52,123 bases of DNA, from NCBI GenBank assembly GCA_031360075.1, contig JANMAX010000316.1, positions 1 through 52,123 on the forward strand. The letters are read 5' to 3'. Below, piece by piece: positions 27,076 to 52,123 of the stretch; positions within the stretch are counted from its first letter, which is position 1, and each line of letters opens with the position of its first letter. The stretch is from a bacterium. Lineage in GTDB: Bacteria > Eisenbacteria > RBG-16-71-46. The notes under the pieces were generated by a model. That model ran no database searches and was not told the DNA's origin. It was given only the letters and a program-made list of their open reading frames with translations. Made by a program: the position numbers and the translations under genes.

Positions 27076-27714
27076 GTGCGGGACTTCGCGGCCAGACTTC
27101 AGGCCGGTGGGACGTTCGTGCGGGCGAGCCATCCTCGACTGGCCGGGCAGGTTCAGCCGCCCAACGGACGGCGACCACAGGGCCGCCTGCGAACAGCTGG
27201 TGCTCGCGCCGGAGGCGGGCTTCCGAACGCCGTCGTGGTCTTGGCTGGTGCCACCGCCACATTCGGGCTGGGCGCGTCGACCTACGACGCCAACGGAATC
27301 GGCCCGCGAGCCTACGCGGCGTATCCGCTTCGGAACGGCCAATCGGCGACGTTCAACGTCCATGTCGTGCAGGGGGCAACTGCCATCGTGCGAATCGACA
27401 CCCTTGCAACCACCGGAGTCAGTGACGTGTCTATCGCCTACCACACAGGATTGCTTGTGCGGCCCAACCCGAGCCGCGGCAAGGTGGAGTTGGTCGCGGA
27501 GATGGCCGAAACAGGTCGTTTGAAGATCGAGGCGTACGACGTGGCTGGAAGGCTTATTGCACAGCCATGCAACGGTCCGGTCGCTGTGGGTCAACAAGTC
27601 GTCCAGTGAGACGCTTACAACGGAGGGAGCATGAACGCTCGAGCTGGGCTCGATTTTGTTCGAATGAAGACCGGGCATCAGGTCTTCACCCGTCGACTGA
27701 TGATGACCAGATGA
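27076..27714 (+). pseudogene. truncated, degraded paralog of the C-terminus of the 43003-46068 protein
   Basis: FGLGASTYDANG...VHVVQGA..VRIDTL...RPNPSRGKVELVA matches the 3' end of 43003-46068. TGA at 27607-27609 sits where the paralog has Trp, and the frame continues to VFTRRLMMTR-stop at 27714. Confidence 0.85.
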
Positions 27715-28265
27715 ATGCACTGCAGCCCACACGTCGCAACTGCGCTCGCTTCGTCCCGGTAGCAGCGCTAGGCCTCATGCTGTCGCTCCCGTGCGTGGCC
27801 CATGCAGCTACTGTCGGGCACCTGATTCTATACGTGCGGGGAAACGTGAGCGACATTGCCCTGGTTGATCCGCTCGGAAGGACCGATCGGGACGACGACG
27901 AAGTTTCGAAGGAAGGCATTCCGGGCTGCTCGCGGTGGCCTGGCGGGATAAAGACGGGCGAGGAGGACTCGCCGAGCGCCGACTCTTCAGCAAATGTGCT
28001 CATGATGTTTGAGCTGAGCAGCGTCCAGTACGGTCGATACGTCGTATGCGTTCGAGCCGATAGCGTGGTGGAGGTGACGGTCTCGGCCACATTTGAGCCC
28101 GAGCCTCAGAGCACATCCGGCTGCATCGATCTAGCCAGGACTTATACGGTCGGCCCGGGGCGTCATGGTTGGGCAATTCATGTGCGACGCGCTCCTCCCA
28201 AGGGCGAATGCGCCGTCCGCATCGCCCCCCTCGTCAAGAAGAAACGGGCCGCGAAATCTCGATAG
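27711..28265 (+). CDS. secreted hypothetical protein, paralog of 46065-46613
   Basis: Signal peptide; GHLILYVRGNVSDIALVDP.GR...IPGC.RWPGG...FELS.V.YGRY is shared with 46065-46613; same ATGA overlap with the upstream gene. Confidence 0.8.
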   Translation: MNALQPTRRNCARFVPVAALGLMLSLPCVAHAATVGHLILYVRGNVSDIALVDPLGRTDRDDDEVSKEGIPGCSRWPGGIKTGEEDSPSADSSANVLMMFELSSVQYGRYVVCVRADSVVEVTVSATFEPEPQSTSGCIDLARTYTVGPGRHGWAIHVRRAPPKGECAVRIAPLVKKKRAAKSR

Positions 28266-28351: not shown

Positions 28352-28825
28352 TCACCCCTCGCGACTGTGCCTCGCCTCGTACGCCCGGTACTGCAGCGCC
28401 TCCGCCAGCCTTAGCGCACCCACACGCGGCTCGCCCGCGAGGTCCGCGATGGTGCGCGCCACGCGCATCGCGCGGTGCACGGCGCGCGCACTCATGCCGC
28501 CGCGGTCCACGGCGTCGGCGACCAGTTGGCGGCCGGGCGCGTCCAGCGCACAGTGCTCGCGCAACAGTGGCGCGGGCATCTGCGCATTCAGCCAGCTGCG
28601 CTGCAACTGCACGGCGCGCGCGGCGAGCACACGCGTGCGCACGGCGTCCGACGGCTCGCCGGGGGCGGCGGCCATGAGTTCGTCCGACGTGAGCGGCGTC
28701 ACCTCGATCTGCAGGTCCAGACGATCGAGGATCGGCCCGCTCACCCGTGCCGTGTAGCGCATCAGGTCGCGCGGCCCGCAGCGGCAGCCGCGTTTGGGAT
28801 GTCCGAGCCAGCCGCACGGGCAGCG
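28352..28825 (-). repeat. displaced comM 3' end, copy 1 (474 bp, open frame, no native start)
   Basis: Encodes CPCGWLGHPKRGCRCG...ALQYRAYEARHSREG; the last 136 aa differ from intact ComM at 3 positions. Confidence 0.95.
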
Positions 28826-28830
28826 TTGCG

Positions 28831-29262
28831 TTGCCTTTTACCAGCTTGCGGCTCAACGTCGCCAAACCGCGCGTGTTCCCAAGGGGTTACCCGCAGAATC
28901 CAACGACGCTCGGCGAATACGTCCGACGCCGAAGACTCGATCTCGGGCTCCCGCAACGAATCCTCGCCGAGCGCTGGCGGGTCACCCGCGAGACGGTCGC
29001 CGGATGGGAACTGGGGCGCTGTCAGCCCGCTATCCGGCACTGGCCGCTCGTCCTCGCGTTCCTGGGGGACGACCCCACGCCGACCGGATTCGTCCTTGCC
29101 GACCGCATCCTTGCCCACCGTCGGAGGTTCGGATTGAAGCAAACCGAGCTGGCCGCCCAGCTCGGGATCGATGCTGGAACGGTCCTCGACCTTGAGTCCG
29201 GGCGGAGAACGCCGAGCGCCCGCGTGAGCGCAGTCGTCGAACGGCTGCTCAGGCGCCGGTAG
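28831..29262 (+). CDS. tandem XRE-family helix-turn-helix protein (unit 1)
   Basis: TLGEYVRRRRLDLGLPQRILAERWRVTRETVAGWELG plus a second HTH (GLKQTELAAQLGIDAGTVLDLESG); TTG start inferred from the paralogs. Confidence 0.85.
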   Translation: MPFTSLRLNVAKPRVFPRGYPQNPTTLGEYVRRRRLDLGLPQRILAERWRVTRETVAGWELGRCQPAIRHWPLVLAFLGDDPTPTGFVLADRILAHRRRFGLKQTELAAQLGIDAGTVLDLESGRRTPSARVSAVVERLLRRR

Positions 29263-29299
29263 TCAACACCGCGGCTACCAATGGACCATGCCGGCGAAC

Positions 29300-29395
29300 G
29301 AGATTGGACTTGCGCCAGGGGGGGGGGGGCACATGCCTACTCTCCACGTGCGCGACCCCCTGTCGTGTCCATCACGCAAGCGCGTCCTCGTGAAG
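29300..29395 (+). promoter_or_regulatory. conserved cassette promoter/operator box with G12 tract (unit 1)
   Basis: GAGATTGGACTTGCGCCA-G12-CACATGCC-TACTCT; homologous boxes at 35286 and 42838. Confidence 0.6.
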
Positions 29396-29631
29396 GCATT
29401 CCCGAGGCGCGCGATCTGATTTCATTGAACTCTCGCGGATGTAGAAACCTGGAGTGGCCGCGGCATGCCAATCGCCGTGCACACGCCTCGGTGCTTGGCG
29501 TAACCCTCCGCGGAAGTTCGGTGAGCGCGATGAGCGAAGCGACGCTTGCTGGTTTGGGCCGATGGGCCGCCACACCTCCACCGCAGGCTCCGATGTCGTT
29601 GAACCAGTATCTCGATTGGGGGGATGCACGC

Positions 29632-31761
29632 ATGATCTCACCGGCGCGTCTCAACTCGCATCGTGTTGCCTTGGCAGCTCTCATGCTCCTGTTGCAACTG
29701 GCAGCTCCGCGACAATCGTCGGCCCTCCAACTGCGATGGAGCGGCGGGTCCGCGGCGCTGGACTTCAGCACCAACACGCGAGTGGTGCTCAGGGTCCAGG
29801 CGGATTCCAGCGAGGGAGTACTCCCTGTGTGGTGGAAGCTCATTGGCGTTTCGGATTCCTCGGGCATTCACATCGTCGCACCCGACTCGCTGACGGCCTG
29901 CCAGGTCGACACGGCCAAGGTCTCCTCTGTCGACCCGCCGTCCACGCCGGCGGACAGCGCCGCGAACCAGACGACGGCGCACCTCTGTTCGTCCGAGAGC
30001 ATCCGCGCCACCGTTGCGTTCTACACTATCGACCTCCTTGCAGGGAGCAAGGGGAGGCTCAAGGTCGTGGCCCTGTCCCCGGCCGATCCAGATTCCGTCA
30101 TCGAGTCGAATGAGGTCGTGTACAATGGTGGGGTCGAAGGCAATTTCCCTCCCGCGCTTCTCCGAACGACCAGCAACCACGCAACCGCATCCCTCGAGGT
30201 CACGGCGGTCGGTGCCGGTCTGGCCGACGTCGATTCGGTGACGGTCGGGGCCGCGGATGGACTCTGGAGTGTTCCGTTGGTCGTCCAATCGAAAAGTCCG
30301 AAGCGACTCACCGCGAGCGCTGATGTGCCCGCCAAGCTGCCCAGCGCGGTGGTCAAGGTGGTGAGTCCCTCTGGGATCAGTGTGGAGGATCTGCCGGCCG
30401 ACAACTCGAGCGCGCTCGTCGTTGTCAGCGCGACGTCCGACACCATCCTGTACCGGGACCCGGATCCAGGCGTCTATTGCCACGATTTCGCGTTCTACTA
30501 CAACGCGGTCCCCGACCCGACGAACCCGGCCCATCCTTGGAAGGGCGCGTTCCACCTGTTCTACATCCGGGTCAAGATCGCCAATTCTGCAGACAGCATC
30601 ATCGCCCACGCCTGGTGCGACACGCTCGGCGCACCTTGGAAGGTGGATTTGAACGCCTTCCGCCCAAGTGGCCAGGGCTGGGACGCCGCAAAGGTCTGGG
30701 CGCCGTCGATCCAGCAGATCGGCAACCTGACGTATATGTTCTATACGGGTGTGGATGCGCTGGGGAACCAGAGCATCGGCTACGCCACCACGCCGATGCT
30801 CGGCACCACCAACATCAGTTGGACGCGCAGGACAACGCCGATCTACACGGCGGCCAACGCGGGCTGGGCGGACAAGGTCGGCCACGAAGTCTCGGGAAGA
30901 ACCAGCTTTCGCGATGCCTTCGTCATGCCGGACCCCGACGAGGTGAAATACCCGGGTCGCTACCTCTTGTTCAATGCGGGCGAGGACGGCGTCCTGTTCC
31001 CCCACTACGCGATCGGTGTCGCCAGGAATCGAGCTGGCACGCTGAATCAGTGGGATGATGGTGGCAAGTTCTTCGCGACCGACCATACCCACATGCCATT
31101 CATCACTGGAGCGCTCGAATCGCCACTGATGGTAAGGGACTCGCTCACGGGGGCGTGGCGTATGTTCGTCGCGAACGCGAACTACGATAATTTGGGCCGC
31201 AAGTCGACGTACTTCTTGACCCAAGTGCCCGGGGACAGCGTCACAGACATCGCCGCCTCTGCCTGGCCTGGGCTCGATTCGCTCTACTACTACACCGGCA
31301 ATGATGCGAGCGTGATCGGATGGCAGGCAGCCGAGCATCTCCAGATCGGTCCGGTCCACTTCTTTGCCTCCTACGTCGGACCGACGGGCATCGGCATCAC
31401 TCGGATGCACTGGGATCCGGTGGCGCAGCGGTTCTTCTTCGTGCATCCCACGAATGCAAGTGTGGGCGATCAGCCCGACGGAGGAGACCTACGCTTCTAT
31501 CTAACTGAGTTTCGTCCGCGGGCCGACCTCGTGCGCTTCGTCCTCGAGTCCGCAAACGCGATAATCCCGAAGCTCATGATCTACGATCTCCTGGGACGGC
31601 GAGTCCGCAACCTCAGTGACGGTCGCGCCACGCAGGGGCGCCATGAGTTCGCGTGGGACTGCCGCAAGGACGATGGCGAGCGCGTCTCGGCGGGCATGTA
31701 CTTCGCTCGGCTGACGGGTTCGAACCGGGCCATGGTGGTTCGTGTTCCGATCCTCCGATAG
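29632..31761 (+). CDS. secreted protein with GH32/GH43-like five-bladed beta-propeller and C-terminal FlgD-Ig/T9SS-CTD-like domain
   Basis: Signal peptide; HDFAF, HLFYI, WAPSI, YMFYTG, FRDAFV and LESP clan GH-J/F-like motifs; C-terminal IYDLLGRRVR...WDCRKDDGERVSAGMYFARL. Confidence 0.7.
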   Translation: MISPARLNSHRVALAALMLLLQLAAPRQSSALQLRWSGGSAALDFSTNTRVVLRVQADSSEGVLPVWWKLIGVSDSSGIHIVAPDSLTACQVDTAKVSSVDPPSTPADSAANQTTAHLCSSESIRATVAFYTIDLLAGSKGRLKVVALSPADPDSVIESNEVVYNGGVEGNFPPALLRTTSNHATASLEVTAVGAGLADVDSVTVGAADGLWSVPLVVQSKSPKRLTASADVPAKLPSAVVKVVSPSGISVEDLPADNSSALVVVSATSDTILYRDPDPGVYCHDFAFYYNAVPDPTNPAHPWKGAFHLFYIRVKIANSADSIIAHAWCDTLGAPWKVDLNAFRPSGQGWDAAKVWAPSIQQIGNLTYMFYTGVDALGNQSIGYATTPMLGTTNISWTRRTTPIYTAANAGWADKVGHEVSGRTSFRDAFVMPDPDEVKYPGRYLLFNAGEDGVLFPHYAIGVARNRAGTLNQWDDGGKFFATDHTHMPFITGALESPLMVRDSLTGAWRMFVANANYDNLGRKSTYFLTQVPGDSVTDIAASAWPGLDSLYYYTGNDASVIGWQAAEHLQIGPVHFFASYVGPTGIGITRMHWDPVAQRFFFVHPTNASVGDQPDGGDLRFYLTEFRPRADLVRFVLESANAIIPKLMIYDLLGRRVRNLSDGRATQGRHEFAWDCRKDDGERVSAGMYFARLTGSNRAMVVRVPILR

Positions 31762-31779
31762 GCACGCGATGCACGTGGA

Positions 31780-34314
31780 GTGCGACACATCGACCGGCCG
31801 GGGCTGGCTGTGAGCGGAATGGCTCAGACGGCGCCAGTTGGTCGGAGCAAGGCAAGCCCAGCGACGTACCGCGGCTCGATAGTAATACGGGCACTGTACG
31901 TCTGGCTGGGGCTGGTGGTCGCCGTCCACGGATCCGCGCACGCCCAAGTGGTGGACTCTACGCTATGGTGTCTTAATCCAGGTTCCACGCTGCTCGCCAT
32001 CGGCAAGCTGGGGCATACCCTCTACCTCGGCGGTAGCTTCCGGTACATTGGGCCGTCGACGGGCGGAGGAGTGCCGTGCGACTCTCATTCTGCGGCCCCG
32101 CTCGCGAACTATCCTCGCGTCGTCGGCCGGGTCTACACGGTAGTCGCCGACGGGCAGGGCGGGTGGTACATCGGCGGCCTGTTCTCCTATGTCGGCGGGC
32201 AGCCGCGGGCGAATCTCGCCCACATCCTCGCGGATGGGAGCGTGGCTGCGTGGGCTCCGGATCCGGACCAACAGGTGTCGGCGATCGCACTCGCCGGCGG
32301 GACCGTCTACGTGGGCGGGGATTTCAAGCTCGTCGGGGGCCAGCCGAGGGCACACTTGGCCGCGCTAGGTCCATCGAGCAGCAGGCCCTTGCCCTGGACG
32401 TGCGATGCGAACGACCGCGTGATGTCACTCGCGGCAAGCGGGTCGACGCTGTACGTGGGCGGATGGTTCACGGTCCTCGCGGGTCAGCCGCGTGCGCGCG
32501 TCGCCGCGGTGGACTTGGCCAGCGGAGTGCCCACGCCGTGGGCGGTGAATCTCGACGATCGCGTCAGCGCGCTGGCGATGCACGACACGACCCTGTTCAT
32601 CGGCGGTTACTTCTGGACCGCAAACGCCGATACGCATCGTTGCATCGTCGCAGTCGGGGCTTCCACCGGCGCGGTGCACGCGTGGAATGCGCTCGTCGAC
32701 CGCCAACCGCCCTCCTCGTTGGATTTCGGCCCGCACGTCAACGCCATGCTATTCAGTGGGGAGTCATTGTTCGTCGCCGGGTCATTCACGCATATCGGTC
32801 GTCAAGCTCGCCAATCGCTGGCGCAGATAGACGTTGCGAGCGGGCGAGCGACGGATTGGAATGCGCGCCCATTCCGCGACACGAGGCTGGGGCCGGAGTT
32901 CTTCTCGCTCGCGTGCTCGGGGGACACGCTCTTCGTCGCGGGGCCATGCGATTCGATTGGCGGCGAGCCATGTGGGCAGGCGTCGGCGCTCAACTCGCGG
33001 AACGCAACCAAGCTGGAATGGGACCCACTGACCAACGATTTCGTGTTCGCGCTGAGCTTGCAGGGTGGTGTCATCTACGTCGGGGGTTGGTTCACGTCGG
33101 TGCGCGACTGGGTGCTCCGCCCCGGCCTCGCCGCGATCGATGAGCAGACGGGACGAGTCACCGATTGGGACCCTCATCCCGACGACTACGTGAGGAGCCT
33201 TCTCGTTCACGGCGGCAAGATCTACGTTGGCGGCTATTTCGGGTCGGTGGGCGGCCAGTTCCGTTCGGGAATCGCTGCGTTGGATCCCGTGACCGGCGAA
33301 GCCACGTCGTGGAACCCGAGTGCAGATGGAGCAGTTTGGTCCATGGCTCCGATGGGCGACGCGGTGATCGCCGCGGGGCTATTCAGGCGAATCGGTGGCC
33401 GTTTCCTAACCGGCCTCGCTGCAATCGATACCTCGACCGGCCGTGCGACATTGTGGACTCCCGATGCAGGAGGCGACGTACACTGCCTGGCTGTCAGTGA
33501 CACGGCGATCTATGTCGGGGGGGACTTTCTCGTCATGGGCGGCAAGCCTCGTGGATCACTCGCCGCCGTCGATCCGTTGACCGGCGCGGCTACCCCCTGG
33601 AACCCCCCGACCGACGGAATCGTGAATGCGATTGCCCTGCTTGACGGAACCATCTATGTCGGAGGCTTGTTCAACACAGTAGGTGGGCTTCCACGCAATT
33701 TCCTCGCCGCCGTCGATCGAGCCGGCTCCGTGTTGCCGTGGGACCCTGATGCCTTCGGCCCAAATGGGGACGGTCGCGTTCGAGCCCTTGTCGCCAAGGA
33801 CAGCACCCTCTTCGCAGGCGGATTCTTCTCCGGGGTGTCGGGGGAGTCCCGCGAGTACTTCGCGGCGCTGGACGCCAAGACGGGCGCTGTGCGACACGAA
33901 TACCCGCACCCCGACGGACCGGTATGGGCGCTTGCCGAGAGCGGCGGCAGTATCTACGTGGGGGGGGCGTTCGGGCGTATGGGACAGTGGCCCCAGGTGG
34001 CACTAGCGGCGATCCGGCCGAGTGGCGCGCTACCGCCGCCTGTCTCGATTCGCCTCCTGCTTGCGCAGAGCGCCCCGAACCCCGCGACCAGCTCCACGGT
34101 AGTGCGGTACTCACTGCCAGCCGGCGCGCCGGTAAGCCTCACCCTGTTTGACTTGCAGGGCCGTCGAAGCGCAAGGGTTCTATCGGACGTATTCCAATCC
34201 GCCGGCCCGCATCAGGTCAGCGTTCGCACCGATGGTCTACGGGCGGGATGCTACCTCTACTGTCTAGAAGCTGGTTCGCTCAGAGCAACGAGGAAGATGG
34301 TGATCGTGAGATAA
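31780..34314 (+). CDS. secreted beta-propeller repeat protein with C-terminal sorting-like domain
   Basis: About 14 repeats of a (L/I/V)YxGGxF..GG..R..LA blade; C-terminal PNP...LFDLQGR...AGCYLYCL; start codon uncertain. Confidence 0.8.
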   Translation: MRHIDRPGLAVSGMAQTAPVGRSKASPATYRGSIVIRALYVWLGLVVAVHGSAHAQVVDSTLWCLNPGSTLLAIGKLGHTLYLGGSFRYIGPSTGGGVPCDSHSAAPLANYPRVVGRVYTVVADGQGGWYIGGLFSYVGGQPRANLAHILADGSVAAWAPDPDQQVSAIALAGGTVYVGGDFKLVGGQPRAHLAALGPSSSRPLPWTCDANDRVMSLAASGSTLYVGGWFTVLAGQPRARVAAVDLASGVPTPWAVNLDDRVSALAMHDTTLFIGGYFWTANADTHRCIVAVGASTGAVHAWNALVDRQPPSSLDFGPHVNAMLFSGESLFVAGSFTHIGRQARQSLAQIDVASGRATDWNARPFRDTRLGPEFFSLACSGDTLFVAGPCDSIGGEPCGQASALNSRNATKLEWDPLTNDFVFALSLQGGVIYVGGWFTSVRDWVLRPGLAAIDEQTGRVTDWDPHPDDYVRSLLVHGGKIYVGGYFGSVGGQFRSGIAALDPVTGEATSWNPSADGAVWSMAPMGDAVIAAGLFRRIGGRFLTGLAAIDTSTGRATLWTPDAGGDVHCLAVSDTAIYVGGDFLVMGGKPRGSLAAVDPLTGAATPWNPPTDGIVNAIALLDGTIYVGGLFNTVGGLPRNFLAAVDRAGSVLPWDPDAFGPNGDGRVRALVAKDSTLFAGGFFSGVSGESREYFAALDAKTGAVRHEYPHPDGPVWALAESGGSIYVGGAFGRMGQWPQVALAAIRPSGALPPPVSIRLLLAQSAPNPATSSTVVRYSLPAGAPVSLTLFDLQGRRSARVLSDVFQSAGPHQVSVRTDGLRAGCYLYCLEAGSLRATRKMVIVR

Positions 34315-34337
34315 GTGTGCACGTGCCCGGAGGCTAT

Positions 34338-34811
34338 TCATACTTCGCCGCTGTGTCTCGCCTCATACGCCCGATACTGCAGCGCCTCGGCGAGCCGCAG
34401 CGCTCCGACGTGCTGTTCCCCGCACAGGTCCGCGATCGTCCGCGCCACGCGCAGCGCACGGTGAACGGCGCGCGCGCTCATGCCGCCGCGGTCGACGGCG
34501 TCGGCGACCAGTTCTCGCCCTGCTGCATCCAGTGCGCAGTGCTCGCGCAGCAATGGCGCCGGCATCTGCGAGTTGAGCCAGCCGCGAGCGCGTTGTAGTC
34601 CACGGGCAGCGAGCACCCGCGAGCGCACATTTGAGGAGCACTCGCCCGGCGCCGCCGCCATCAGCTCATCCGAAGTGAGCGCCATCACTTCGATCTGGAG
34701 ATCCAACCGATCTAAGATCGGCCCCGACACGCGCGCCGCGTAGCGCGCCAGGTCACGCGGTCCGCACTTGCACCCGCGCTTCGGGTGGCCCAGCCAGCCA
34801 CACGGACAGGG
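34338..34811 (-). repeat. displaced comM 3' end, copy 2 (474 bp, most divergent)
   Basis: PCPCGWLGHPKRGCKCG...ALQYRAYEARHSGEV; open frame; same breakpoint as the other copies. Confidence 0.95.
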
Positions 34812-34816
34812 TTGCG

Positions 34817-35272
34817 TTGCCTTTCTGCAATCTCCGCCTCGCTGGACGAAGAGCGCCTGCGTTGCCAAGAGGTTACCCGACTTCGCTCGTCACGCTTGGC
34901 GACCACATCCGCCGCCGTCGGCTCGACCTGGGCCTATCGCAACGAACCCTGGCAGGCCGCTGGCGGGTCACCCGCGAGACCGTCGCTGGGTGGGAACTCG
35001 GTCGGTACGAGCCCTCGATTCGCCACGGGCCACTCGTGATTGCCTTCCTGGGTATGGACCCAACTGCCACCCGAAGCGCGATCCCCGAAGGGCTCAGGTC
35101 CGTCCGCCGCCGGTTCGGTCTCACCCAGGGCGAAATGGCGGTTCGGCTCCGGCTCGACGCCGGGACCGTCGCCGATCTCGAAGCCGGGCGGCGGTCCCCA
35201 AGTGCGCGAGTCAGGAGCGCCGTCGTGCGCCTGTTGGAGCAGGCCCTGCAAGATCCGAGTGTACCGAAGTAG
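34817..35272 (+). CDS. tandem XRE-family helix-turn-helix protein (unit 2)
   Basis: TLGDHIRRRRLDLGLSQRTLAGRWRVTRETVAGWELG plus a second HTH; paralog of 28831 and 42369. Confidence 0.85.
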   Translation: MPFCNLRLAGRRAPALPRGYPTSLVTLGDHIRRRRLDLGLSQRTLAGRWRVTRETVAGWELGRYEPSIRHGPLVIAFLGMDPTATRSAIPEGLRSVRRRFGLTQGEMAVRLRLDAGTVADLEAGRRSPSARVRSAVVRLLEQALQDPSVPK

Positions 35273-35285
35273 CTCGCCGAGTATC

Positions 35286-35365
35286 GAGGTTGGACTTGCG
35301 CCAAGGAGGGCGGCCCCGGTTGCGCCTGCCACCCCTCCGTCGTGACCCAATGAGTCTCGCGTGAC
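35286..35365 (+). promoter_or_regulatory. degenerate cassette promoter/operator box (unit 2)
   Basis: GAGGTTGGACTTGCGCCAAGGAGGG; no poly-G tract and no TACTCT. Confidence 0.5.
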
Positions 35366-35708
35366 CGAGTCCAGCTCAAGCATGCGGGCGCTTCACGTTG
35401 GACGCCGGAACGAGCCGCATTCAGGGGTGGCCTCATGGCCACGCCTCAGGGGAGCGACTTCGCGAGCCGCAGCTTCGTGGTTTGCGCCCGTGCCCAGGAG
35501 GCCGCCATGGGCGGCGAGCCGAAGCTCCTGGAGGAGCACATGGGCCCCCGTGAGATTGACCGTCCGGCTCCCCACATACCGTTGCCGGTAGAGCCTCCTG
35601 GGTCGCCAGTGGCCGACTGCGCACAAGGGACCACTGCGCGCCTCTGAGCGAATCAAGGACAATCGATTTCTGAGAAGGGATGATTGAAGAGGACGGGAGG
35701 TCACGTGC

Positions 35709-36557
35709 ATGTTGCGACTCTTGAGGGTGATGACTTGCTCGGTGTGTTTGATGGCCTTCGTCCCATGCGTACAGGCTGGGAACAACGCGGGTGCATCGGT
35801 CGAGTTGGCGTGGGACGCGAATGCCTTGCGGTCCTCGCCATCGGGCTTCCCCCTCTGTCTCGCCGTGTATGACGCGCCCGATCTTCGGCAGCTCGTGATC
35901 CACGTGAGTTGGACTCCGTACGATCCGGGAGGGGATTGTTTCCGCTTGAAGCCGGCGGGAAAAGCAGTCGCGTGCGACAGCCTCCGGGCGCTGCCGGTTG
36001 GCACGAGCCTCGAGGACTCAAGCTACGTCTGGACCGTGCTCTTCGCTTCCGCGCCAGCTTCACCCCAGCACCTGATCTACTGGATCACCGGGACGAGCTG
36101 CGACTCGACGGCGTCCCCGCGGTTCCTGGTGACCGACGTCCGGGCGCTGGATTCCTCGGGAGCGAGCGACACTCTTACTTCTCGCGGCTGCGTGATTCTG
36201 AATAGCGCCATGGCGTTTGGGGCCGCCGACGTCACTCAGTCGATATCACCCATGCCGTCGGGTGAGATGGGTGAGGCACTTCCCACTCGCCTCGCTCTCT
36301 TCGCGAACCCAAATCCCCTGGTCGAAGCGGCGACGATCAGATTCGACCTGCCCGGACCAATCTCCTGCCACCTCGCGATCTATGACGTGAGCGGAGCTCT
36401 CGTGCTGGACGCGAGTCCCGTCGTGCGCGCACAGCGCGGCAGCTTCCGCTGGGACCTGACCCGCAGGGATGGCGAACGGGTCCACCCAGGAGTGTACTTC
36501 GCACGCCTCACCAGCTCGGCTGGCTCTCGCGTGGTGCCGCTGACGGTGCTCAAGTGA
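35709..36557 (+). CDS. secreted protein: GNNAG N-terminal module fused to a C-terminal sorting-like domain
   Basis: Signal peptide; N-domain homologous to the 43003 protein; PNP...IYDVSG...WDLTRRDGERVHPGVYFARL. Confidence 0.8.
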   Translation: MLRLLRVMTCSVCLMAFVPCVQAGNNAGASVELAWDANALRSSPSGFPLCLAVYDAPDLRQLVIHVSWTPYDPGGDCFRLKPAGKAVACDSLRALPVGTSLEDSSYVWTVLFASAPASPQHLIYWITGTSCDSTASPRFLVTDVRALDSSGASDTLTSRGCVILNSAMAFGAADVTQSISPMPSGEMGEALPTRLALFANPNPLVEAATIRFDLPGPISCHLAIYDVSGALVLDASPVVRAQRGSFRWDLTRRDGERVHPGVYFARLTSSAGSRVVPLTVLK

Positions 36558-36685
36558 ACCGCGCGAACCTTGTACACGAGTCCCCGCCGCGCAAAGCTCT
36601 CGCCACGCGATGGCGCGTTTCGCGAGCGCCTTCCGGTCATGGCTTGTCGGCGACGCCACTTCTGCGACCTGCTCAGGAGTCTGCC

Positions 36686-38710
36686 GTGTTCATCCGATTC
36701 CTGTCGCTGGTCGGGCTGGTCGTTTGCCTTAACGCGGCCATTGCCTGGGCGCAAGCACCATTCGCCCCACACGCTTCGGGCGACAAGGTCACCAGGTACC
36801 CGCAGGCTGAGGGGACCTACCCCTACCCGTCCAGGCCCCAGTATCTGATTCCGACCTCGGTGGAGACCGGAGCGGGCGCGACCACTTGGAACGCGGTCCT
36901 CACCCGGATCACCGGCGATGCGGGCGCATCCATCACCCACTTGAGCCCGTCCGTCTGGGGAAAGGACGGGCGGCACCAGTACTCAAGCCGCTCTTCATGG
37001 AACGCCACCGGCTCGCTCCTCTACATCGAGAATGGCATGTGCAACGACTGCGTGGCAGCGGTGGATGGTGTACACTGCCCGAAGACGTCCGGTGGGTTCA
37101 ACGGCTACAACGGCCCCGCAGAGCCGAAGAAGCTGTTTCTGGACGGGAACACGTACATCCCCCAGAACATCGGCCAGTTCACCGCGATCACTGACGCCAA
37201 AGAGTTGGTGTGGCACCCGTCGACCTCACGGGCGGACTACATGATCGTCGTAAGGGACTCGCTCGGGTCGCCGGAGGACGCTGCCCACAATCGCTCTCTG
37301 CTGCAGTGGGTGAACGTCTGGAATGGCGCTATCGCGCGCACCTGGACGCTCCCGTTTCAAGTGGCGGGCATCGGACCCGGCGAAGGCGCCCCCAGCAACG
37401 ACGGCCGATTCATCACCCTCCTCAACGTCGCCGGAGATAACGTGGTCCTGGTTGACATGGACCCGTCGATACCGGACCCGTATCCTAGGCGGCGAATCAG
37501 TGCTGCATCACCGTTGCCGCAGCCGTGTGGGCTGTCTTGTCCAACGAGCTGCAATGTTGGCCACGTGACGGTGTCGAGCAAGGGTACATTCCTCGACGTG
37601 GCGTATGGCAATGACATTCACCGCATCTTCGACATCGACTGGAAGCTGACTGAACAATCTGCCATGCCAGCTCTGGGATCCCCGCACACGATGCACGTGG
37701 CACCTCCGTCGTGTTACGACGGTGCGCTGGCACTCGACGCGAACGGCTGGATCATGCCTCTTAAGCACGCCGACCATCTGACTTACGGAGACGAGGAGTA
37801 CATCGTTGGCTTCGACGATTGCCGCGTTTTTGGTTCCTGTGAATTCCCGGGCGGCTTGGAACCTTTCGCCGAGGACTCGGGCCGCGTTGTCGTGGTGAAG
37901 CTGACCCCTGGTTCACTCCTTCAAGACGGATCGGTGCGGCACGTAAGCGCGGGCCGCCTTGAAGTGGGCTCAAGGGAGCGGTCGGGTGCCCACGTTTCCG
38001 CACGCAATGTGAGCGGGCAGACCTCCTGGGTCTTCGCGAGCTACGACAAGACACCGGGTGATTTGCCAACCGGAAACACGCGGATGATGGGTGAAGTCGT
38101 GGCCTGGAGCCTGGACAGGAGCGCGACCGTCCCCAAGGCGGTCAAGCGCTTCACCTGGAGTCACAGTGCCTGGTCGAGCGCTCTCGGCTACGAGTGTTAC
38201 CGCGCCGAGATGCACCCCAGCCCGTCGCCGGATGGCCGGCGCATCCTGTTCGCGTCGAACTGGCGGCGCTGGACGCAGGGCGTAAGCGACTACGCTCCGA
38301 ACGATTGGCGGAAAGCCTACGTCATCGACACCCGGCCCACGCCGGCAGCGGTCAGCGGCCTGACCGCTGAGTCCACGCAGGGGTGTGCGATCACGCTCCG
38401 ATGGACGGCTCCGAAGGACGACATGCTGGACCCCGCATCGGGGCAAGTCGCTGGGTACGATATCCGGTACAATACGACAGGCGAGATCACGCCCGAAAGC
38501 TTCTACGATCAGGCATTTGTAGTGCCACCGTCGCCGCTCGCGCCCGGTTCACTCCAGACCCTGGTGGTGAGCGGGCTAGATGACACCCAGACCTACTACT
38601 TCGCTGTGAGGTCGATCGGGACCAACGGCCCGCGCTCGACGATCGTGGGCCCGGTAACGGCGACTCCAGGACCGCCCCCGCCGCACAACCCGCCGTTCTT
38701 CTGCGGATGA
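36686..38710 (+). CDS. secreted TolB/oligogalacturonate-lyase-like beta-propeller protein with C-terminal Fn3 domain
   Basis: GTG start after AGGAG; signal peptide; HQYSSRSSWNATG and HPSPSPDGRRILFASNW motifs; Fn3 motif LRWTAP...SGLDDTQTYYFAVRS. Confidence 0.7.
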   Translation: MFIRFLSLVGLVVCLNAAIAWAQAPFAPHASGDKVTRYPQAEGTYPYPSRPQYLIPTSVETGAGATTWNAVLTRITGDAGASITHLSPSVWGKDGRHQYSSRSSWNATGSLLYIENGMCNDCVAAVDGVHCPKTSGGFNGYNGPAEPKKLFLDGNTYIPQNIGQFTAITDAKELVWHPSTSRADYMIVVRDSLGSPEDAAHNRSLLQWVNVWNGAIARTWTLPFQVAGIGPGEGAPSNDGRFITLLNVAGDNVVLVDMDPSIPDPYPRRRISAASPLPQPCGLSCPTSCNVGHVTVSSKGTFLDVAYGNDIHRIFDIDWKLTEQSAMPALGSPHTMHVAPPSCYDGALALDANGWIMPLKHADHLTYGDEEYIVGFDDCRVFGSCEFPGGLEPFAEDSGRVVVVKLTPGSLLQDGSVRHVSAGRLEVGSRERSGAHVSARNVSGQTSWVFASYDKTPGDLPTGNTRMMGEVVAWSLDRSATVPKAVKRFTWSHSAWSSALGYECYRAEMHPSPSPDGRRILFASNWRRWTQGVSDYAPNDWRKAYVIDTRPTPAAVSGLTAESTQGCAITLRWTAPKDDMLDPASGQVAGYDIRYNTTGEITPESFYDQAFVVPPSPLAPGSLQTLVVSGLDDTQTYYFAVRSIGTNGPRSTIVGPVTATPGPPPPHNPPFFCG

Positions 38711-38795
38711 GAAGACTGCACTCGAACGGTGGGCTCGAACGTCGCAGAGCCTGGCGCGAGCCACTTTCCGGATCTGATCCGGATCGAGGCACTCC

Positions 38796-41700
38796 ATGAA
38801 CTCACCCCGCCGGATGTCGAGTTCCAGGTGGTCGTGGCTGGCCGTGGCCATGACATCGTGCGCGCTCGTGAGTTCGACGCGCTCACTCGCCGAGTGCGAG
38901 CCGGGCTTTGAGCTCCATCCCGAGTACTACACGTTCAGCGTGGGCGCCAAGCCGGTGTCCGTGGCGACTGGAGACTGGAACGAGGACGGCCGACCCGACG
39001 TCGTGACCGCGAACGCGGATGGCCGTTCGCTCACGTTGCTGTTCGGTGCGGGCGGCTTTCACCTCCGGCCCGGAGGCGAGATCCCGATGGGGGCGGCCGC
39101 CTACTGGGTGGAGCCCAAGGACATGAACGCCGACGGGCATCTCGACCTGGTCGCCACCGGGGACTTCGGCACTGTCGTACTGGTGGGTGACGGCCGGGGA
39201 GGATTCCGGACCGGCGCTACCTACCCCTATGCCGGTACGTTCCTGGCGCTTGGAGATCTCAACCGGGACGGCTCGTGCGACATCGCGCTGGCGTCCAGGA
39301 CGGCCAAGCTCGACGTGACGTTCCTGTTCCTCAAAGGGCTGGATGTAGACCACGTGCATACGTTGCCCTATCCAGTGGATGCGATCCATCTCGGGGACTT
39401 CAACGAGGACGGGGCTCTGGACATGGCCGTTGTTGGATGTGGGGGCTACATCTGGCTGAACCCTGGCGACGGAACCTTCAGCCCATCATGGACCTTCTAC
39501 CCGTATCACTGCTGCACCAAGTGGGGGGCAGTCGGCGATATCAACGGCGACGGTCACGTCGATATCGTGGGAGTGGAAAGCTACCCGGGCTGCGGTGGCG
39601 TCCTGCTCGGCCGCGGAGATGGAACCTTTCAAGACCCGTATGGCGGGCTCGCCGCCGAGTTGCCCTCGGGTCCGGAGGAGCCGCGACCGCCAGCCGTCGC
39701 GCGCCGCCAAGTGCCCAGCGGCGAAACGAGGCACGAGCCGTGGATGCCACCCCTGCTCAGCGGCGCATCCTGGCAGGTTCAGGACTCGGGCGGCGAGCCC
39801 CTGCCGGAGCGTCCGGCGAGTGTTCCCAGTGCGTTGTGGCCGACCAACGAACCGGGCGCCGGCCCCGATCTCCTGCTGGACGCGGTTCACTATGGACCGC
39901 ACTGGGTCATGCTCGCGGATCTCGATGGGGACGGCCGGGACGACTGGGTCACACTGAGCAATCAGCCGGGAGAAGAAGTCCTGTACCGGCGCTCGGTGTC
40001 CTACCCGACGGCGGCGGTGGTGGTCGACATCGACGGCGACGGTCGCCTGGACGTGGTGGCCGCGGGACGCCAGTACTGGGGCGCTGGACCGATCGATGGG
40101 GCGGTGGCGGTGCATCCGGGGGACGAGCACGACATCATCCGCCGCAACCCGAGCGTGTACATGAGTGACCGGCCGGTGATGGCAGAGCTGGTCGACTTCA
40201 ACCGGGATGGGATCGCGGACATCGCCTCCATGGGAGACGACGGCCTGCAGATCGTTGTCAGGCAGGCCGACGGGAGCCTCGGTCCGATCCTGGGCGCGCC
40301 GGGCTACTACGGCTTTGGGCACGCGTTCGTCGACATCAACGGTGACGGGAACCTCGACGTGCTGGACGGAGATCCCATGCTGTATCTCGGCAATGGGGAT
40401 GGGACGTTCGACTGGGAGATGCCGATCCAGTACTTCGACAGTCGTCTGAGCGGATTCGACGCGGGGGATGTGGATGGGGACGGCAAAGTGGACGTGGTCG
40501 GGATCCGCTGGTACAGCGTGCCCGGCAACCGGCCGGAGGGCCCCGCACTGCTCCTGCGTGGGAACGGCGACGGGACGTTCCGCCCCGCGACCGAGCTGGG
40601 GATAACCGCCGCCCAGGTGAGGCTCAAGGACCTGGACGGCGACGGCCACCTGGACATGGTCGTCGCCAGGGAGAACGGAGGCATGTCGGTGTACTGGGGC
40701 AGCGGCGATGGGACATTCACGATGGGCCCGGTGCTCGAGAGCTCCGGGACGATCTACTCGCTGCTCTATGGAGACATCGATGGGGACGGGCGGCTCGACC
40801 TGTTCGCCAACCCGGAAGCCCGAGAAGTCGTCTACCGCAGTCTGGGAGGGCGGAGTTATCAGCGCCTGGCACTGAATCTGCGAGTCTACCCGACATTCCC
40901 GGCCCTGGGGGATATCAACGGCGACGGCAAGGATGATCTCATTGACTACGGCATCCAGGCATTCCACGTCTACTTGAGCAATGGTGACGGCAGTTTCCGA
41001 GGGCCACTCGAGGATTCGTATGGACCGGGCGGGCTCGTCCTCGTGGACCGGGCGAGCCGGAGCCCGCAGCAGCTCTTCGCGCTCACTCGGAACAACGAGT
41101 ACTACTTCACCAAGGTCACACTGGTCGAGAACGAGCAGAGGCCCAACCGGGGGCCGATCACGGGCAACGCCCGCGCGGTGGTGACGGGCCCGGGGGCTCG
41201 GAATCACGGTTGGGCGGACATCTCGATCGCGGGCGTGAGCGATCCCGAAGGTGACGCAGTGAGCATCGCGGTGACGGGGATCACGCAGGACGAACCGGTG
41301 GGGAGCGGGTTCATGGGCGGTCCGCACGGGACCGCGGGCTCCGGCGGGCCTCACTGTCCGGATGCTCTCATCGTGGGCGGGCAGGCGCGGGTGCGTTGGG
41401 AGCGTGCGGGCTCCGGAAACGGCCGCATGTACAGGGTGGACTTCATCGCGACGGACGGCTGTGGCGGAACAAGTCCCGGCCAGGTAAACGTGTGCGTGCC
41501 GCACGATGCCGCGTCGCTGACATGCGTGGACGATGGTCAGCGCTACAACTCGCTCGGATGTGAGGTGGGCGGTCCCGCAGCGCTGGCGGTGTCGGCGGCG
41601 GATGGCCTGTACGCGCCGCAGGTGCACGCCGGAGGCGCGGAACTCCACTATTCGCTGGCACAGTCGGCCGAGGTGCGACTCGAGATCTTCGACCTCTTGG

Positions 41701-41849
41701 GCCGAAGGCGCGCGGTGCTGACGGGCGGACTTCAGCCGCCGGGTGAGCACCGGGCGCGCTGGGATGCCGTGGGGGCCGCGGGGGTGTACTTCGCGCGGCT
41801 CTCGATCCGGGGGCAGAGCTTCGTCCAGCGCTTCGCGCTTCTCCCTTGA
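38796..41849 (+). CDS. secreted FG-GAP/VCBS repeat protein with C-terminal sorting-like domain
   Basis: 13 DxxxDGxxD repeats; signal peptide; C-terminal IFDLLGRR...AGVYFARL. Confidence 0.88.
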   Translation: MNSPRRMSSSRWSWLAVAMTSCALVSSTRSLAECEPGFELHPEYYTFSVGAKPVSVATGDWNEDGRPDVVTANADGRSLTLLFGAGGFHLRPGGEIPMGAAAYWVEPKDMNADGHLDLVATGDFGTVVLVGDGRGGFRTGATYPYAGTFLALGDLNRDGSCDIALASRTAKLDVTFLFLKGLDVDHVHTLPYPVDAIHLGDFNEDGALDMAVVGCGGYIWLNPGDGTFSPSWTFYPYHCCTKWGAVGDINGDGHVDIVGVESYPGCGGVLLGRGDGTFQDPYGGLAAELPSGPEEPRPPAVARRQVPSGETRHEPWMPPLLSGASWQVQDSGGEPLPERPASVPSALWPTNEPGAGPDLLLDAVHYGPHWVMLADLDGDGRDDWVTLSNQPGEEVLYRRSVSYPTAAVVVDIDGDGRLDVVAAGRQYWGAGPIDGAVAVHPGDEHDIIRRNPSVYMSDRPVMAELVDFNRDGIADIASMGDDGLQIVVRQADGSLGPILGAPGYYGFGHAFVDINGDGNLDVLDGDPMLYLGNGDGTFDWEMPIQYFDSRLSGFDAGDVDGDGKVDVVGIRWYSVPGNRPEGPALLLRGNGDGTFRPATELGITAAQVRLKDLDGDGHLDMVVARENGGMSVYWGSGDGTFTMGPVLESSGTIYSLLYGDIDGDGRLDLFANPEAREVVYRSLGGRSYQRLALNLRVYPTFPALGDINGDGKDDLIDYGIQAFHVYLSNGDGSFRGPLEDSYGPGGLVLVDRASRSPQQLFALTRNNEYYFTKVTLVENEQRPNRGPITGNARAVVTGPGARNHGWADISIAGVSDPEGDAVSIAVTGITQDEPVGSGFMGGPHGTAGSGGPHCPDALIVGGQARVRWERAGSGNGRMYRVDFIATDGCGGTSPGQVNVCVPHDAASLTCVDDGQRYNSLGCEVGGPAALAVSAADGLYAPQVHAGGAELHYSLAQSAEVRLEIFDLLGRRRAVLTGGLQPPGEHRARWDAVGAAGVYFARLSIRGQSFVQRFALLP

Positions 41850-41889
41850 TTCGGGAGCACGAGGCGGGGAATCAGCGCGGGCAGGGCAT

Positions 41890-42363
41890 TCATGCTTCGG
41901 AAGCGTGCCGTGCCTCGTACGCCCGGTACTGCAGCGCCTCCGCCAGTCGTAGCGCGCCCACCCGCGGCTCGCCCGCCAGGTCCGCGATCGTGCGCGCCAC
42001 GCGCATCGCGCGGTGCACGGCGCGCGCGCTCATGCCGCCGCGGTCCACAGCGTCGGCGACCAGTTGGCGTCCGGGCGCGTCGAGTGCGCAGTGCTCGCGC
42101 AGCAGGGGTGCTGGCATCTGCGCGTTCAGCCAGCCGCGCTGCAACTGCACGGCGCGCGCGGCGAGCACGCGCGTGCGAACGGCATCAGACGGCTCGCCGG
42201 GAGCCGACGCCATCAGCTCTTCTGAAGTCAGCGGCGTGACCTCGATCTGCAGGTCGAGCCGGTCGAGGATCGGTCCCGAGACACGCGCCGTGTAGCGCAT
42301 CAGGTCGCGCGGGCCGCAGCGGCAGCCGCGCTTGGGATGCCCGAGCCAGCCGCACGGGCACCG
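41890..42363 (-). repeat. displaced comM 3' end, copy 3 (474 bp)
   Basis: CPCGWLGHPKRGCRCG...ALQYRAYEARHASEA; open frame; same breakpoint as the other copies. Confidence 0.95.
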
Positions 42364-42368
42364 TTGCG

Positions 42369-42815
42369 TTGCCTTTTACCAGCCTGCGGCTCAAGGCGCC
42401 CAGACCCTCCGTGTTCCCAAGGGGTTACCCGAAGAATCCGGTGACACTCGGTGAACAGCTCCGTCGTCGAAGGCTCGATCTCAGCCTGCCGCAACGAATC
42501 CTCGCCGAGCGCTGGCGGGTCACCCGCGAGACGGTCGCCGGATGGGAGCTGGGACGCTGTCAGCCCTCGATCCGGCACCGGCCGCTCGTCGTGGAGTTCC
42601 TGGGGCTCGACCCGACGCCGACCGCGGCCACGCTCGGCGGCCGACTTCGGGCCTACCGACGCAAGCATGGACTGACGCAGGCGGAGCTCGGTGTCAGGGT
42701 GGGCATCAATGAGGGGACCATCCTCGATATCGAAGCGAATCGGCGAAAGACCAGCGCCCGCGTCGTGGCGCTCATTGAGGGCTTGCTGGCGCGGGGCCGG
42801 GCTCCAAACCGGTGA
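42369..42815 (+). CDS. tandem XRE-family helix-turn-helix protein (unit 3)
   Basis: TLGEQLRRRRLDLSLPQRILAERWRVTRETVAGWELG plus a second HTH (GLTQAELGVRVGINEGTILDIEAN). Confidence 0.85.
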   Translation: MPFTSLRLKAPRPSVFPRGYPKNPVTLGEQLRRRRLDLSLPQRILAERWRVTRETVAGWELGRCQPSIRHRPLVVEFLGLDPTPTAATLGGRLRAYRRKHGLTQAELGVRVGINEGTILDIEANRRKTSARVVALIEGLLARGRAPNR

Positions 42816-42837
42816 CCAAAGGATAACTTCGAAGAAT

Positions 42838-42930
42838 GAGATTGGACTTGCGCCAGGGGGGGGGGGAGGCGCCTACTCTGCCCCTTGCGCTCCCCCGTCG
42901 CGCACCAGTGCGATCATGCGTGCTCGACCT
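42838..42930 (+). promoter_or_regulatory. conserved cassette promoter/operator box with G11 tract (unit 3)
   Basis: GAGATTGGACTTGCGCCA-G11-AGGCGCC-TACTCT. Confidence 0.6.
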
Positions 42931-43002
42931 GTCCTTTCCGATGAGCACGAGCGCATTGCATTGAACCTCGTACCTCGCGGCAGCTCTCAGTGGGATAGTC
43001 GA

Positions 43003-46068: not shown

Positions 46069-46613
46069 GGGCGAGCGGAGTTGTTCTAGGAAAGCGCTTG
46101 TGTCTTAGCTTGCTGGTAGCTGTGCTTGTCGAAACTCCGCCCGCCACTCAGGCTGGGACGGCAGGACATTTGCTTTTGTACGTTCGTGGGAACGTGAGCG
46201 ACATCGTCCTGGTCGATCCCGCTGGAAGGGCCGACCGGCAGAATGACAGTATCGCGGTCGCCAACATTCCTGGCTGCGGGCGGTGGCCCGGTGGTCTGGG
46301 GGGAGACCAGAGTGACCCCACTACTGTTGACTCCAGCGCCAGGTCCCAGATGCTGTTCGAGTTGAGCATCGTTCATTACGGACGGTACCTCGTCTCCGCT
46401 CAGTCTGACGACAGTCTCGATGTGGAAGTGGTGGGGACCTTCGATACAGCGGACCACTCCTCGACGGCTTGCGTAGACCTGACCCAGAGGGACCGAGTCG
46501 CAGTCGGCCGCACCACCTGGGCCGTTGACGTTCGGCGTTCGCCGCCACCGGGTGAATGCACAATCCGGATTACTCGGCTAGGCGAGTGGAAATCGAAGGG
46601 TAGGTGTCGGTAG
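46065..46613 (+). CDS. secreted hypothetical protein, paralog of 27711-28265
   Basis: Signal peptide; ATGA overlap with the upstream gene; extensive identity with 27711-28265. Confidence 0.8.
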   Translation: MRASGVVLGKRLCLSLLVAVLVETPPATQAGTAGHLLLYVRGNVSDIVLVDPAGRADRQNDSIAVANIPGCGRWPGGLGGDQSDPTTVDSSARSQMLFELSIVHYGRYLVSAQSDDSLDVEVVGTFDTADHSSTACVDLTQRDRVAVGRTTWAVDVRRSPPPGECTIRITRLGEWKSKGRCR

Positions 46614-48254: not shown

Positions 48255-48426
48255 GGTGGTTCCGTGTGCGGGGGCAGGGACCATTGCGCGCGGGCGGCCA
48301 TGGCAGGCACGACGCGGGGGTGGACGGCCCCGGCGAATCGGGCGGCCCATGCGGGGCGACTGCACGCCGGGCCACGCAAGTTCCATGCAATGCCCAACCC
48401 GTTGCGGCTAAGGTATCGCGTCCAGT

Positions 48427-52020: not shown

Positions 52021-52123
52021 CGAGGCCTCGGGGGGAAGGGCGGGGTGCGGGAACCGGGCGGCTGGGAGCATGCAGGGGTGCGCGGGGACGGGCAACCTGA
52101 GGTGCCGTGAGCAACCGAACCGC

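Follow-up and report, generated by a model that had tools for sequence, protein, structure and literature searches.

Introduction

Large serine recombinases (LSRs) are known to insert mobile elements into the bacterial gene for the Mg-chelatase homologue ComM/YifB, and here we analyze a stretch of bacterial DNA of 52,123 nucleotides (the window; positions 1 to 52,123 of contig JANMAX010000316.1, assembly GCA_031360075.1, lineage Eisenbacteria RBG-16-71-46) in which an intact comM gene is accompanied by a tandem array of what are probably the scars of such elements. Homologues of the Mg-chelatase/ATP-dependent-protease family (ComM/YifB) are hit by 12.4% of the predicted site-specific LSRs of Durrant et al. 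(2022; PMC10083194), in which both the enzyme class and the target gene are as here and by which the kind of junction that we report is thus already known; as far as the accessible text of that account goes, it holds no attachment site (att) sequences, no helix-turn-helix (HTH) partner gene and no arrays for the Mg-chelatase-targeting group. A second close system is the sr1WO group of the Wolbachia phage WO, which, according to the accessible part of its description, carries an LSR at one end, integrates in the host magnesium chelatase gene so that pieces of this gene flank the prophage, and bears HTH_XRE regulators at the opposite (3') element end, with secondary sites and rearranged copies still accompanied by gene pieces also reported (PMC9203015). 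WO is, however, a tailed phage, whereas in the elements described below we saw a coupling-protein-like gene of the type IV secretion system (T4SS) kind and defence genes but no phage structural genes; moreover, the target gene of WO is split, whereas comM in the window is whole again by virtue of extra 3' copies.

Two further groups of elements invite comparison. In islands at tRNA and tmRNA genes and in the staphylococcal cassette chromosome (SCC) arrays at orfX, the integrase itself makes the repeat, which is either a short att core or that end of the gene which attP, the site of the free element, brings along. The window resembles these systems in that recombinase-less cargo lies between att-bearing repeats of the target gene, beside a working copy; it differs from them in that the enzyme makes no duplication here and the 470-bp repeats come from another process. 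Likewise, comM is the target of the AbaR/Tn6022-type, Tn7-like insertions of Acinetobacter, which employ a transposase, generate a short target duplication, lie at another position in the gene and leave comM broken; Pfam scans of the open reading frames (ORFs) of the window detected no AbaR/Tn6022-type genes. In our literature searches, the accounts of Durrant et al. and of phage WO were the only ones to turn up on recombinases at magnesium chelatase genes; neither the restoration of comM by additional 3' copies nor an array of such scars was described in anything that the searches returned. What is unusual here is the tandem array that keeps comM whole, the construction of which we infer.

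Results

The intact comM gene of the window (46743..48386, minus strand) encodes a YifB-family Mg-chelatase-like AAA ATPase, with a TIGR00368 score of 518 bits against a cut-off of 362 and with the ChlI, Mg_chelatase and Mg_chelatase_C domains all present, and contains the uninterrupted candidate target site (attB). Its 3' part recurs in three displaced copies, all on the minus strand, all 156 residues long and open, and all cut at the same place, the codon of the first Cys of the M-N-P-C-P-C-G motif: copy C at 28352..28822 (89.4% nucleotide identity to the intact gene, with a ratio of nonsynonymous to synonymous divergence, dN/dS, of 0.03), copy B at 34338..34808 (79.9%, 0.11) and copy A at 41890..42360 (88.6%, 0.05). 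On the plus strand each of these antisense parts of about 471 nt precedes one copy of a 14-mer, GTTGCGTTGCCTTT, which an earlier note on this DNA had called invariant and which is indeed exact at 28825-28838, 34811-34824 and 42363-42376. There is no fourth match in the window even when two mismatches are allowed; the chance expectation is 0.19, and three or more matches occurred in 0 of 100 shuffles.

The same note had placed the breakpoint at 47216, from where intact comM does read GGTTCATGGCC. The position is shared by all three fragments, but the similarity to comM ends 3 nt earlier, its last two bases being the CA of 47212-47213, which is TG on the coding strand, in the first Cys codon of the motif. 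At the equivalent site the intact gene reads ...CCACAGGGA-CA-GGGGTTCATGG, while the junctions read ...CCAGCCGCACGGG-CA-gc-14mer for copy C (CA at 28821-28822), ...CCACACGGA-CA-gg-14mer for copy B (34807-34808) and ...CCGCACGGG-CA-cc-14mer for copy A (42359-42360). Two variable, element-derived bases (gc, gg, cc) thus separate the CA from the 14-mer, and together with it they form the element-side arms of scar C (28823..28838), scar B (34809..34824) and scar A (42361..42376), all on the plus strand. All three junctions have the order comM 3' half-CA-NN-arm, which is that of the hybrid site on the HTH side (attR). Within the 4.07-Mb assembly the 14-mer occurs four times, the fourth copy, on contig C178, also standing at the start of an HTH gene.

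The double-HTH protein encoded next to each 14-mer was searched for in 100 related genomes and in the source genome itself. It was present in 25 of these 101 genomes and an LSR in 8, of which 7 were among the 25. Most HTH loci returned carried the 14-mer or a near copy at the HTH start, and in 17 of 30 loci (two of them the window's own, and one overlapping another) the HTH unit was abutted by a comM 3' fragment starting at residue 388-392. In a congener (G010) and another family member (G045), in neither of which intact comM was found, what comes after the junction word is not an HTH gene; it is, in antisense, the 3' end of a gene whose product has Resolvase and Recombinase domains. By these predicted domains, the gene encodes an LSR; the two proteins are 71% identical, and a CxC...CxxC stretch, as would suit a Cys-rich zinc ribbon, is visible in both. 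TraG/TraD-like coupling-protein genes, a ThsB-TIR gene, a DNA methylase, a helicase and similar genes are their neighbors. The relatives' loci in which such an LSR gene was seen at the element end, adjoining the site, are L046, L045 and L169.

A complete element of 43,975 bp lies on a single contig of genome G086. At one end, towards which its LSR gene reads, the comM 5' part continues as ...ATGAATCCG-TG-GA-GTTGCGTTGCCTTT; at the other, the inverted arm is followed by GA-TG and the comM 3' part, and the double-HTH gene points into the element. Since the 14-mer stands at both ends, the word is an inverted repeat of the element. Both hybrid junctions can be read on this one contig, and there is no target duplication. 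The cargo comprises a T4SS coupling-protein-like gene, a type I restriction-modification system and an ImmA/ImmR-like pair.

For a wider survey, one genome per species was scanned with the LSR of G045, and the best 80 of 344 relatives, which are 51-74% identical, were classified by what follows the 3' end of the LSR gene. Their record titles name Verrucomicrobia, Proteobacteria, Acidobacteria, Bacteroidota, Elusimicrobia, Armatimonadota, candidate-phyla-radiation groups, Eisenbacteria and others, including a Bifidobacterium, a member of the Eubacteriaceae and Actinobacteria. The flank was the antisense comM 5' part in 53 of the 80, an attP form with the HTH gene directly after the palindrome in 11, and the comM 3' part in sense, that is, in opposite polarity, in 3; the contig ended in 6, and the flank was something else or undetected in 7. 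In 49 of the 53 comM 5' junctions the sequence conforms to arm-NT-CA-NGGRTTCAT, where GGRTTCAT is the antisense of ATGAAYCC (Met-Asn-Pro), and the arm consensus of these 49 is AAAGGCAACRCAAC, its central GGCAAC being conserved at 0.94-1.00. The attP layout is accordingly LSR gene, AAAGGCAACRCAAC-NT-CA-NN-GTTGCGTTGCCTTT, double-HTH gene, as exemplified by AAAGGCAACACAAC-TT-CA-CT-GTTGCGTTGCCTTT with the HTH gene following at once. Breakpoints are not scattered over homologous loci but fall in the same comM codon in 49 of these 53 junctions from many phyla. The check by collected junctions that the earlier note proposed thus turned out in favor of its first reading, and the suspicion of an attachment-site-like junction is borne out by the inverted 14-mer at the LSR end and by the 11 attP loci.

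The crossover can be placed as well. CA is the sole dinucleotide common to attP, attB and the hybrid sites attL and attR, and the bases on either side of it match the partner from which they come; for these reasons we assign the 2-bp crossover to CA. From phiC31 and Bxb1 it is known that the orientation of the central dinucleotide sets the polarity of insertion. Where the LSR lies beside the comM 5' part, the order is LSR...CA, whereas beside the comM 3' part (G045, L049) it is LSR...TG, and this reversal fits the rule. Considered jointly, it is thus very likely, as far as comparison of sequences can tell, that the 14-mer is the attP arm of an LSR, that crossover takes place at TG/CA in the codon for the first Cys of NPCPCG (47212-13 in intact comM) and that the copies in the window are scars.

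Several individual elements deserve mention in their own right. The LSR reading frames L046:5994-7721 and L045:10496-12097 run through the att arm and stop inside the adjoining comM sequence, so that the last LSR residues would differ between the integrated and the free form. At L097:1406-5530 (Armatimonadetes) an intact comM lies directly upstream of the recombinase gene and in the same direction, and the 5' part of the interrupted host comM comes after the recombinase; this element may carry its own replacement comM. The 44-kb element of G086 contains a further ATGAACCCC-GTTGCGTTGCCTTG (contig C28, about 58125-58150, inside L169), a comM-like half joined straight to a near-exact 14-mer, as well as a second, different large serine recombinase (L171:1363-2925).

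We asked further whether the 14-mer is held by constraint on the DNA or on the protein, the earlier note having pointed out that the word also encodes VALPF at the HTH start. HTH-side junctions were gathered through the HTH protein, blind to the 14-mer, and aligned with MAFFT with the HTH motif as anchor; 7 of 31 alignment rows were not HTH junctions and were dropped before counting, and 24 genuine junctions were counted. The 14-mer is exact in 12 of them and has at most one mismatch in 17. The mean frequency of the major allele is 0.93 over the 14-mer columns versus 0.68 over the next 40 coding bases, and at codon third positions, on which the logo of collected junctions proposed in the earlier note was to turn, it is 0.92 inside the word versus 0.57 downstream. 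On the protein side, the distance from the 14-mer to the codons for Pro-Arg-Gly-Tyr-Pro (PRGYP) is 54 nt in 18 of 30 hits, with two more mis-registered by 5 nt; it is 53 nt in five, 55 nt in two and unrelated in three. Between the 14-mer and PRGYP the synonymous sites vary while L-P-F-x-x-L-R-L is kept, which implies that the TTG inside the 14-mer (TTG-CCT-TT) is likely the start codon of the HTH gene and that the last eight bases of the word are coding. The HTH genes are intact and have dN/dS values of 0.22-0.36, that of cassette C against its counterpart in the congener G003 included, and are thus kept in use without the enzyme.

The part of the VALPF suggestion that stands, therefore, is the likely TTG start with L/M-P-F in frame. 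Protein constraint nevertheless leaves two observations unexplained, namely the invariant synonymous sites and the inverted 14-mer that ends the LSR gene, where it is read in another frame and strand as K/N-R/W-Q-R/H-N. Probably both levels of constraint act on the 14-mer: its origin would be explained by the att arm, and its survival in old scars by the start and first codons of the HTH gene, perhaps together with an operator or control region.

No recombinase was found in the window by Pfam scans of its 42 ORFs, and the assembly to which it belongs (92.8% complete, 382 contigs) gave neither a Resolvase or Recombinase family hit nor a tblastn hit with the LSRs of the relatives. As all three junctions are of the attR type and no LSR was found in the assembly, we refer to them as scars. 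In a phage collection all LSR matches were less than 60% identical, and 26-28% among the 25 matches listed; in a plasmid collection there was no LSR match at E 1e-40.

An island moved by a tyrosine integrase with the 3' end of its target gene in attP, the common origin of partial-copy arrays at tRNA and tmRNA genes, would produce a similar picture, with tandem units each ending in a copy of the target-gene 3' end and the gene kept whole. We regard it as highly improbable here. There is no Phage_integrase domain (PF00589) on the window's contig (C373) or on C178, and the seven PF00589 hits of the assembly are on other contigs (C173, C229, C209, C111, C212 and C334); in relatives the junction word is flanked by a serine, not a tyrosine, recombinase; and the full elements of G086, G010 and G045 interrupt comM without supplying a 3' copy. 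An integron cassette array was considered too and rejected, as the contig has no tyrosine recombinase and what is repeated is a 470-bp gene copy together with an HTH gene rather than an attC site.

Each cassette consists of a double XRE-type HTH gene of about 145 codons, followed by genes for large secreted-looking proteins and then by the next comM 3' copy, with all HTH and cargo genes on the plus strand. Cassette C has its HTH gene at 28831..29262, likely starting at the TTG inside the 14-mer, and at 29281..34314 cargo encoding an 826-residue protein with a C-terminal FlgD_ig domain and an 844-residue DUF5122 propeller with a sorting tail of the type IX secretion system (T9SS). In cassette B the HTH gene (34817..35272) is followed at 35709..41849 by genes for proteins of 282, 718 (fn3) and 1017 (FG-GAP repeats) residues, and in cassette A the HTH gene (42369..42815) goes with cargo at 42691..46613 for an 1125-residue protein with a T9SS sorting tail and a 182-residue protein. 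The three cargos are unrelated at the nucleotide level. The two cargo genes of cassette A have paralogues on the left side of copy C (27076..28265, plus strand), where a remnant, the C-terminus of a sorting-tail protein, and a gene for a 232-residue protein appear to be older downstream neighbors of comM: the 182- and 232-residue proteins share 47% amino acid identity (E 2e-55), and the C-terminus of the 1125-residue protein matches the remnant at 70% over 457 nt. Moreover, homology between the 3' end of intact comM and copy C continues for 118 nt past the stop codon. Taken together, this paralogy and the homology past the stop make the cargo look like native comM-downstream genes that were brought in along with the comM 3' part.

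Comparison of the four comM 3' copies, that of the intact gene (I) and A, B and C, gave pairwise synonymous divergences (dS) of 0.48-1.17 and dN/dS of 0.03-0.14, with all four open to the same stop, which suggests that they evolved as parts of working genes or were corrected against one. In G003 the working and the displaced comM 3' copies are closest to each other (dS 0.26, versus at least 0.72 to all others) and share unusual residues, a pattern that reads as the mark of gene conversion. Both of these copies (L160:4309, 10288) have C-A-C-G instead of C-P-C-G, the half-site next to the crossover being altered.

Cassette C with its two flanking copies is colinear with the only cassette of G003 over 6,470 nt (75.7%), and the flanks of the two loci, including the genes upstream of comM, are syntenic. 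The junction of cassette C, being common to this congener, was inherited and not freshly made, and the earlier suggestion of a fixed ancestral element end is to this extent, and for the window, partly true. A different single cassette stands beside the same left flank in G005, and single-cassette layouts are found also in G049, in G031 and in the complete genome G037, where insertion sequences of the IS3 type have replaced the cargo. In that genome (L039:715-4088) two inverted IS3-family transposase genes (rve) bracket the displaced comM copy and HTH gene, without the cargo that is normally there. Other cassettes across the family bear the same cargo pair as cassette C, which points in one direction or the other with respect to the HTH gene. 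The array always grows at its comM-proximal side. In a search for an empty site, the 1.5 kb downstream of comM in congeners without cassettes had no nucleotide similarity to the left flank of the window.

These data bear on a further alternative, in which a single ancient insertion into comM was followed by tandem duplication of the unit of comM 3' part, junction, HTH gene and cargo, the 14-mer being kept only for the sake of the HTH gene, with its start codon, first residues and operator, and having no present or recent role as a recombination site. It would account for the junction that cassette C shares with G003, for the frame of TTG-CCT-TT and its fixed 54 nt to PRGYP, for purifying selection on HTH genes that have no recombinase beside them, and for the paralogy of the cassette A cargo with the left flank. 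However, unused duplicates left in place would not be expected to reach a dS of 0.5-1.2 with dN/dS of at most 0.14 unless they were converted from a selected copy; the three cargos are unrelated in nucleotide sequence; and the congeners G005 and G003 bear different single cassettes. Since the 14-mer is an att arm in 64 LSR loci (the 53 junctions and the 11 attP forms), its origin as a recombination site is not in doubt, though its recent use is. On balance we think that this alternative is unlikely.

Discussion

We propose that integrative elements moved by an LSR would target comM at the M-N-P-C-P-C-G codons. The attP of the free element would consist of two arms arranged as an inverted repeat around a 2-bp crossover, and integration would swap halves of attP and comM within the first Cys codon, at its TG (CA in antisense), without any duplication, yielding the comM 5' part plus an arm at one junction and an arm plus the comM 3' part at the other. 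In the window, the recombinase and the rest of each element would have been lost, and what is left per scar would be the HTH gene, genes for secreted proteins and one more comM 3' copy. With a comM 3' copy of its own at the end of each cassette, the gene is completed by whichever copy lies closest to the comM 5' part, and older copies are displaced downstream. We put the probability of this overall reading, comprising the attP arm of an LSR, comM-targeting elements and an array of their scars, at roughly 0.8.

How the array itself came about is a separate question, for which three steps can be envisaged. First, an element would have inserted and later decayed to its HTH end. Second, comM would have been repaired with DNA of a relative, consisting of the comM 3' part and its downstream genes, by a homologous join in the 5' part and an illegitimate join inside the remnant. 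Third, homologous recombination between the repeats of about 470 bp, DNA of relatives included, would add, remove and homogenize units. That the array was built and is reshuffled by homologous recombination between comM 3' repeats, in part with DNA from relatives, is in our estimate slightly favored over all other routes combined.

Alternatively, the cassettes could be mobile by means of an LSR supplied in trans, with base-precise junctions and each bringing its own comM repair patch. This could conceivably happen in two ways. A cassette looped out as a circle with an attR-type site (comM 3' half plus 14-mer arm) might insert into the attB of intact comM, or a full element might excise via a distant attR, carry cassettes with it and leave them behind upon re-excision in a new host. 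The intermediate proposed for this scheme is seen in G045, in which the comM 5' part, a full LSR element, a comM 3' copy, a cassette and a second comM 3' copy follow one another with all attR sites in direct order. Growth of the array on the comM-proximal side only, displaced copies that look recently functional by their dN/dS of 0.03-0.14, and the recurrence of the same cargo type at several loci across the family in both cargo orientations would also be consistent with it. The scheme requires, however, a reaction not known for serine integrases, which synapse attP with attB or, given a directionality factor, attL with attR; an attR-by-attB reaction is not known. In addition, the scheme leaves the first duplication of the comM 3' part without a cause, vertical inheritance of cassette C goes back beyond the split of G003 from the source genome (G000), and the low dN/dS can be accounted for by gene conversion alone. 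We therefore consider mobility in trans improbable. A related and more elaborate view receives slightly less credence still. According to it, the cassettes would be distinct hitchhikers on comM-targeting elements, equipped with a built-in comM 3' repair patch (the B' half-site) and moved by the enzyme, via a distant attR upon excision or through attR-by-attB exchange, with comM staying whole; the double-HTH protein would bind the 14-mer arm and confer immunity by barring further elements from the restored comM; and the displaced comM halves would be intact by virtue of being cycled back into use.

Returning to the scar array as proposed above, several observations weigh against it. First, as no LSR was found in the window or in the incomplete assembly, the link to this enzyme rests on relatives. 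Second, serine recombination duplicates no target, so that the comM 3' repeats of about 470 bp necessitate a second process, and no intermediate of the proposed comM repair step was found. Third, the native 3' copy is not singled out, copies I, A and C being about equally distant from those of congeners. Copy B and the HTH gene of cassette B are both outliers, which fits joint inheritance of an HTH gene with the copy to its left, though with three taxa this would occur by chance in about 1 in 3 cases. Fourth, the distance from the 14-mer to PRGYP is not a multiple of 3 in 9 + 2 of 30 hits, some of which are mis-registered or belong, probably, to decayed genes. Finally, HTH units with comM-like ends of 9-30 nt occur outside comM (C178, L008/L041, L015, L018, L031 and L043), and neither homologous recombination nor an enzyme-driven route explains such stand-alone units.

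In the stand-alone loci L008/L041, L015, L018, L021 and L031 the motif ...(A/G)TGAAYCC-N-CA-NN stands in front of the 14-mer, and the DNA before it is unrelated; this motif resembles the Met-Asn-Pro side of attB but is joined via CA, not TG. We considered these ends as pseudo-attB sites, as decayed attP arms and as comM 5' remnants, and none of the three is a clean match, since a comM 5' junction would demand the opposite polarity of the central CA. The unit on contig C178 (L001:7165-13426), a fourth cassette of the source genome, is not located at comM; an M13 peptidase gene lies on one side of it and unrelated genes on the other. It comprises an exact 14-mer, an HTH gene that is probably frameshifted (53-nt spacing, early stop), a cargo pair of the cassette C type in inverted order and a frameshifted comM 3' copy. 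This copy overshoots the crossover by some 8-18 nt on the 5' side, the 14-mer has only about 11 comM-like bases before it, and the unit looks as if it were flanked by minimal attB. On contig C34 (L002:1-2092), 57 nt of a comM 3' end lie beside the C-terminal 589 residues of a protein 77% identical to the 844-residue cargo protein of cassette C; this piece may be another member of the array or a separately assembled strain variant.

If the proposed reading holds, a puzzling repeat is explained by a concrete enzyme class and a base-exact crossover. A single LSR family retains 51-74% identity over records whose titles range from candidate-phyla-radiation bacteria to Proteobacteria, Bacteroidota and Actinobacteria, and the pairing of a near-invariant attP arm with a highly conserved motif of a near-universal gene would amount to the natural logic of a broad-host landing site that may also serve genome engineering. 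In the window comM would have been restored three times over, resulting in a stack of scars, each of which retains a regulator gene that is still alive, genes for secreted proteins and a comM half that is intact yet unused. Two questions thereby become testable, namely how a competence gene recovers after LSR insertion and whether scars act as seeds of variable gene arrays.

As for the remainder of the window, the genes left of 26.5 kb are ordinary chromosomal ones according to the Pfam scans of the 42 ORFs. Two genes upstream of comM, and separated from it by a 461-residue ORF (48486-49871), the minus strand at 49975-52095 encodes a large protein with Big_7 and a C-terminal FlgD_ig domain, which is of the same class as the cassette cargo; large proteins of the FlgD_ig type may simply be common in the source genome.

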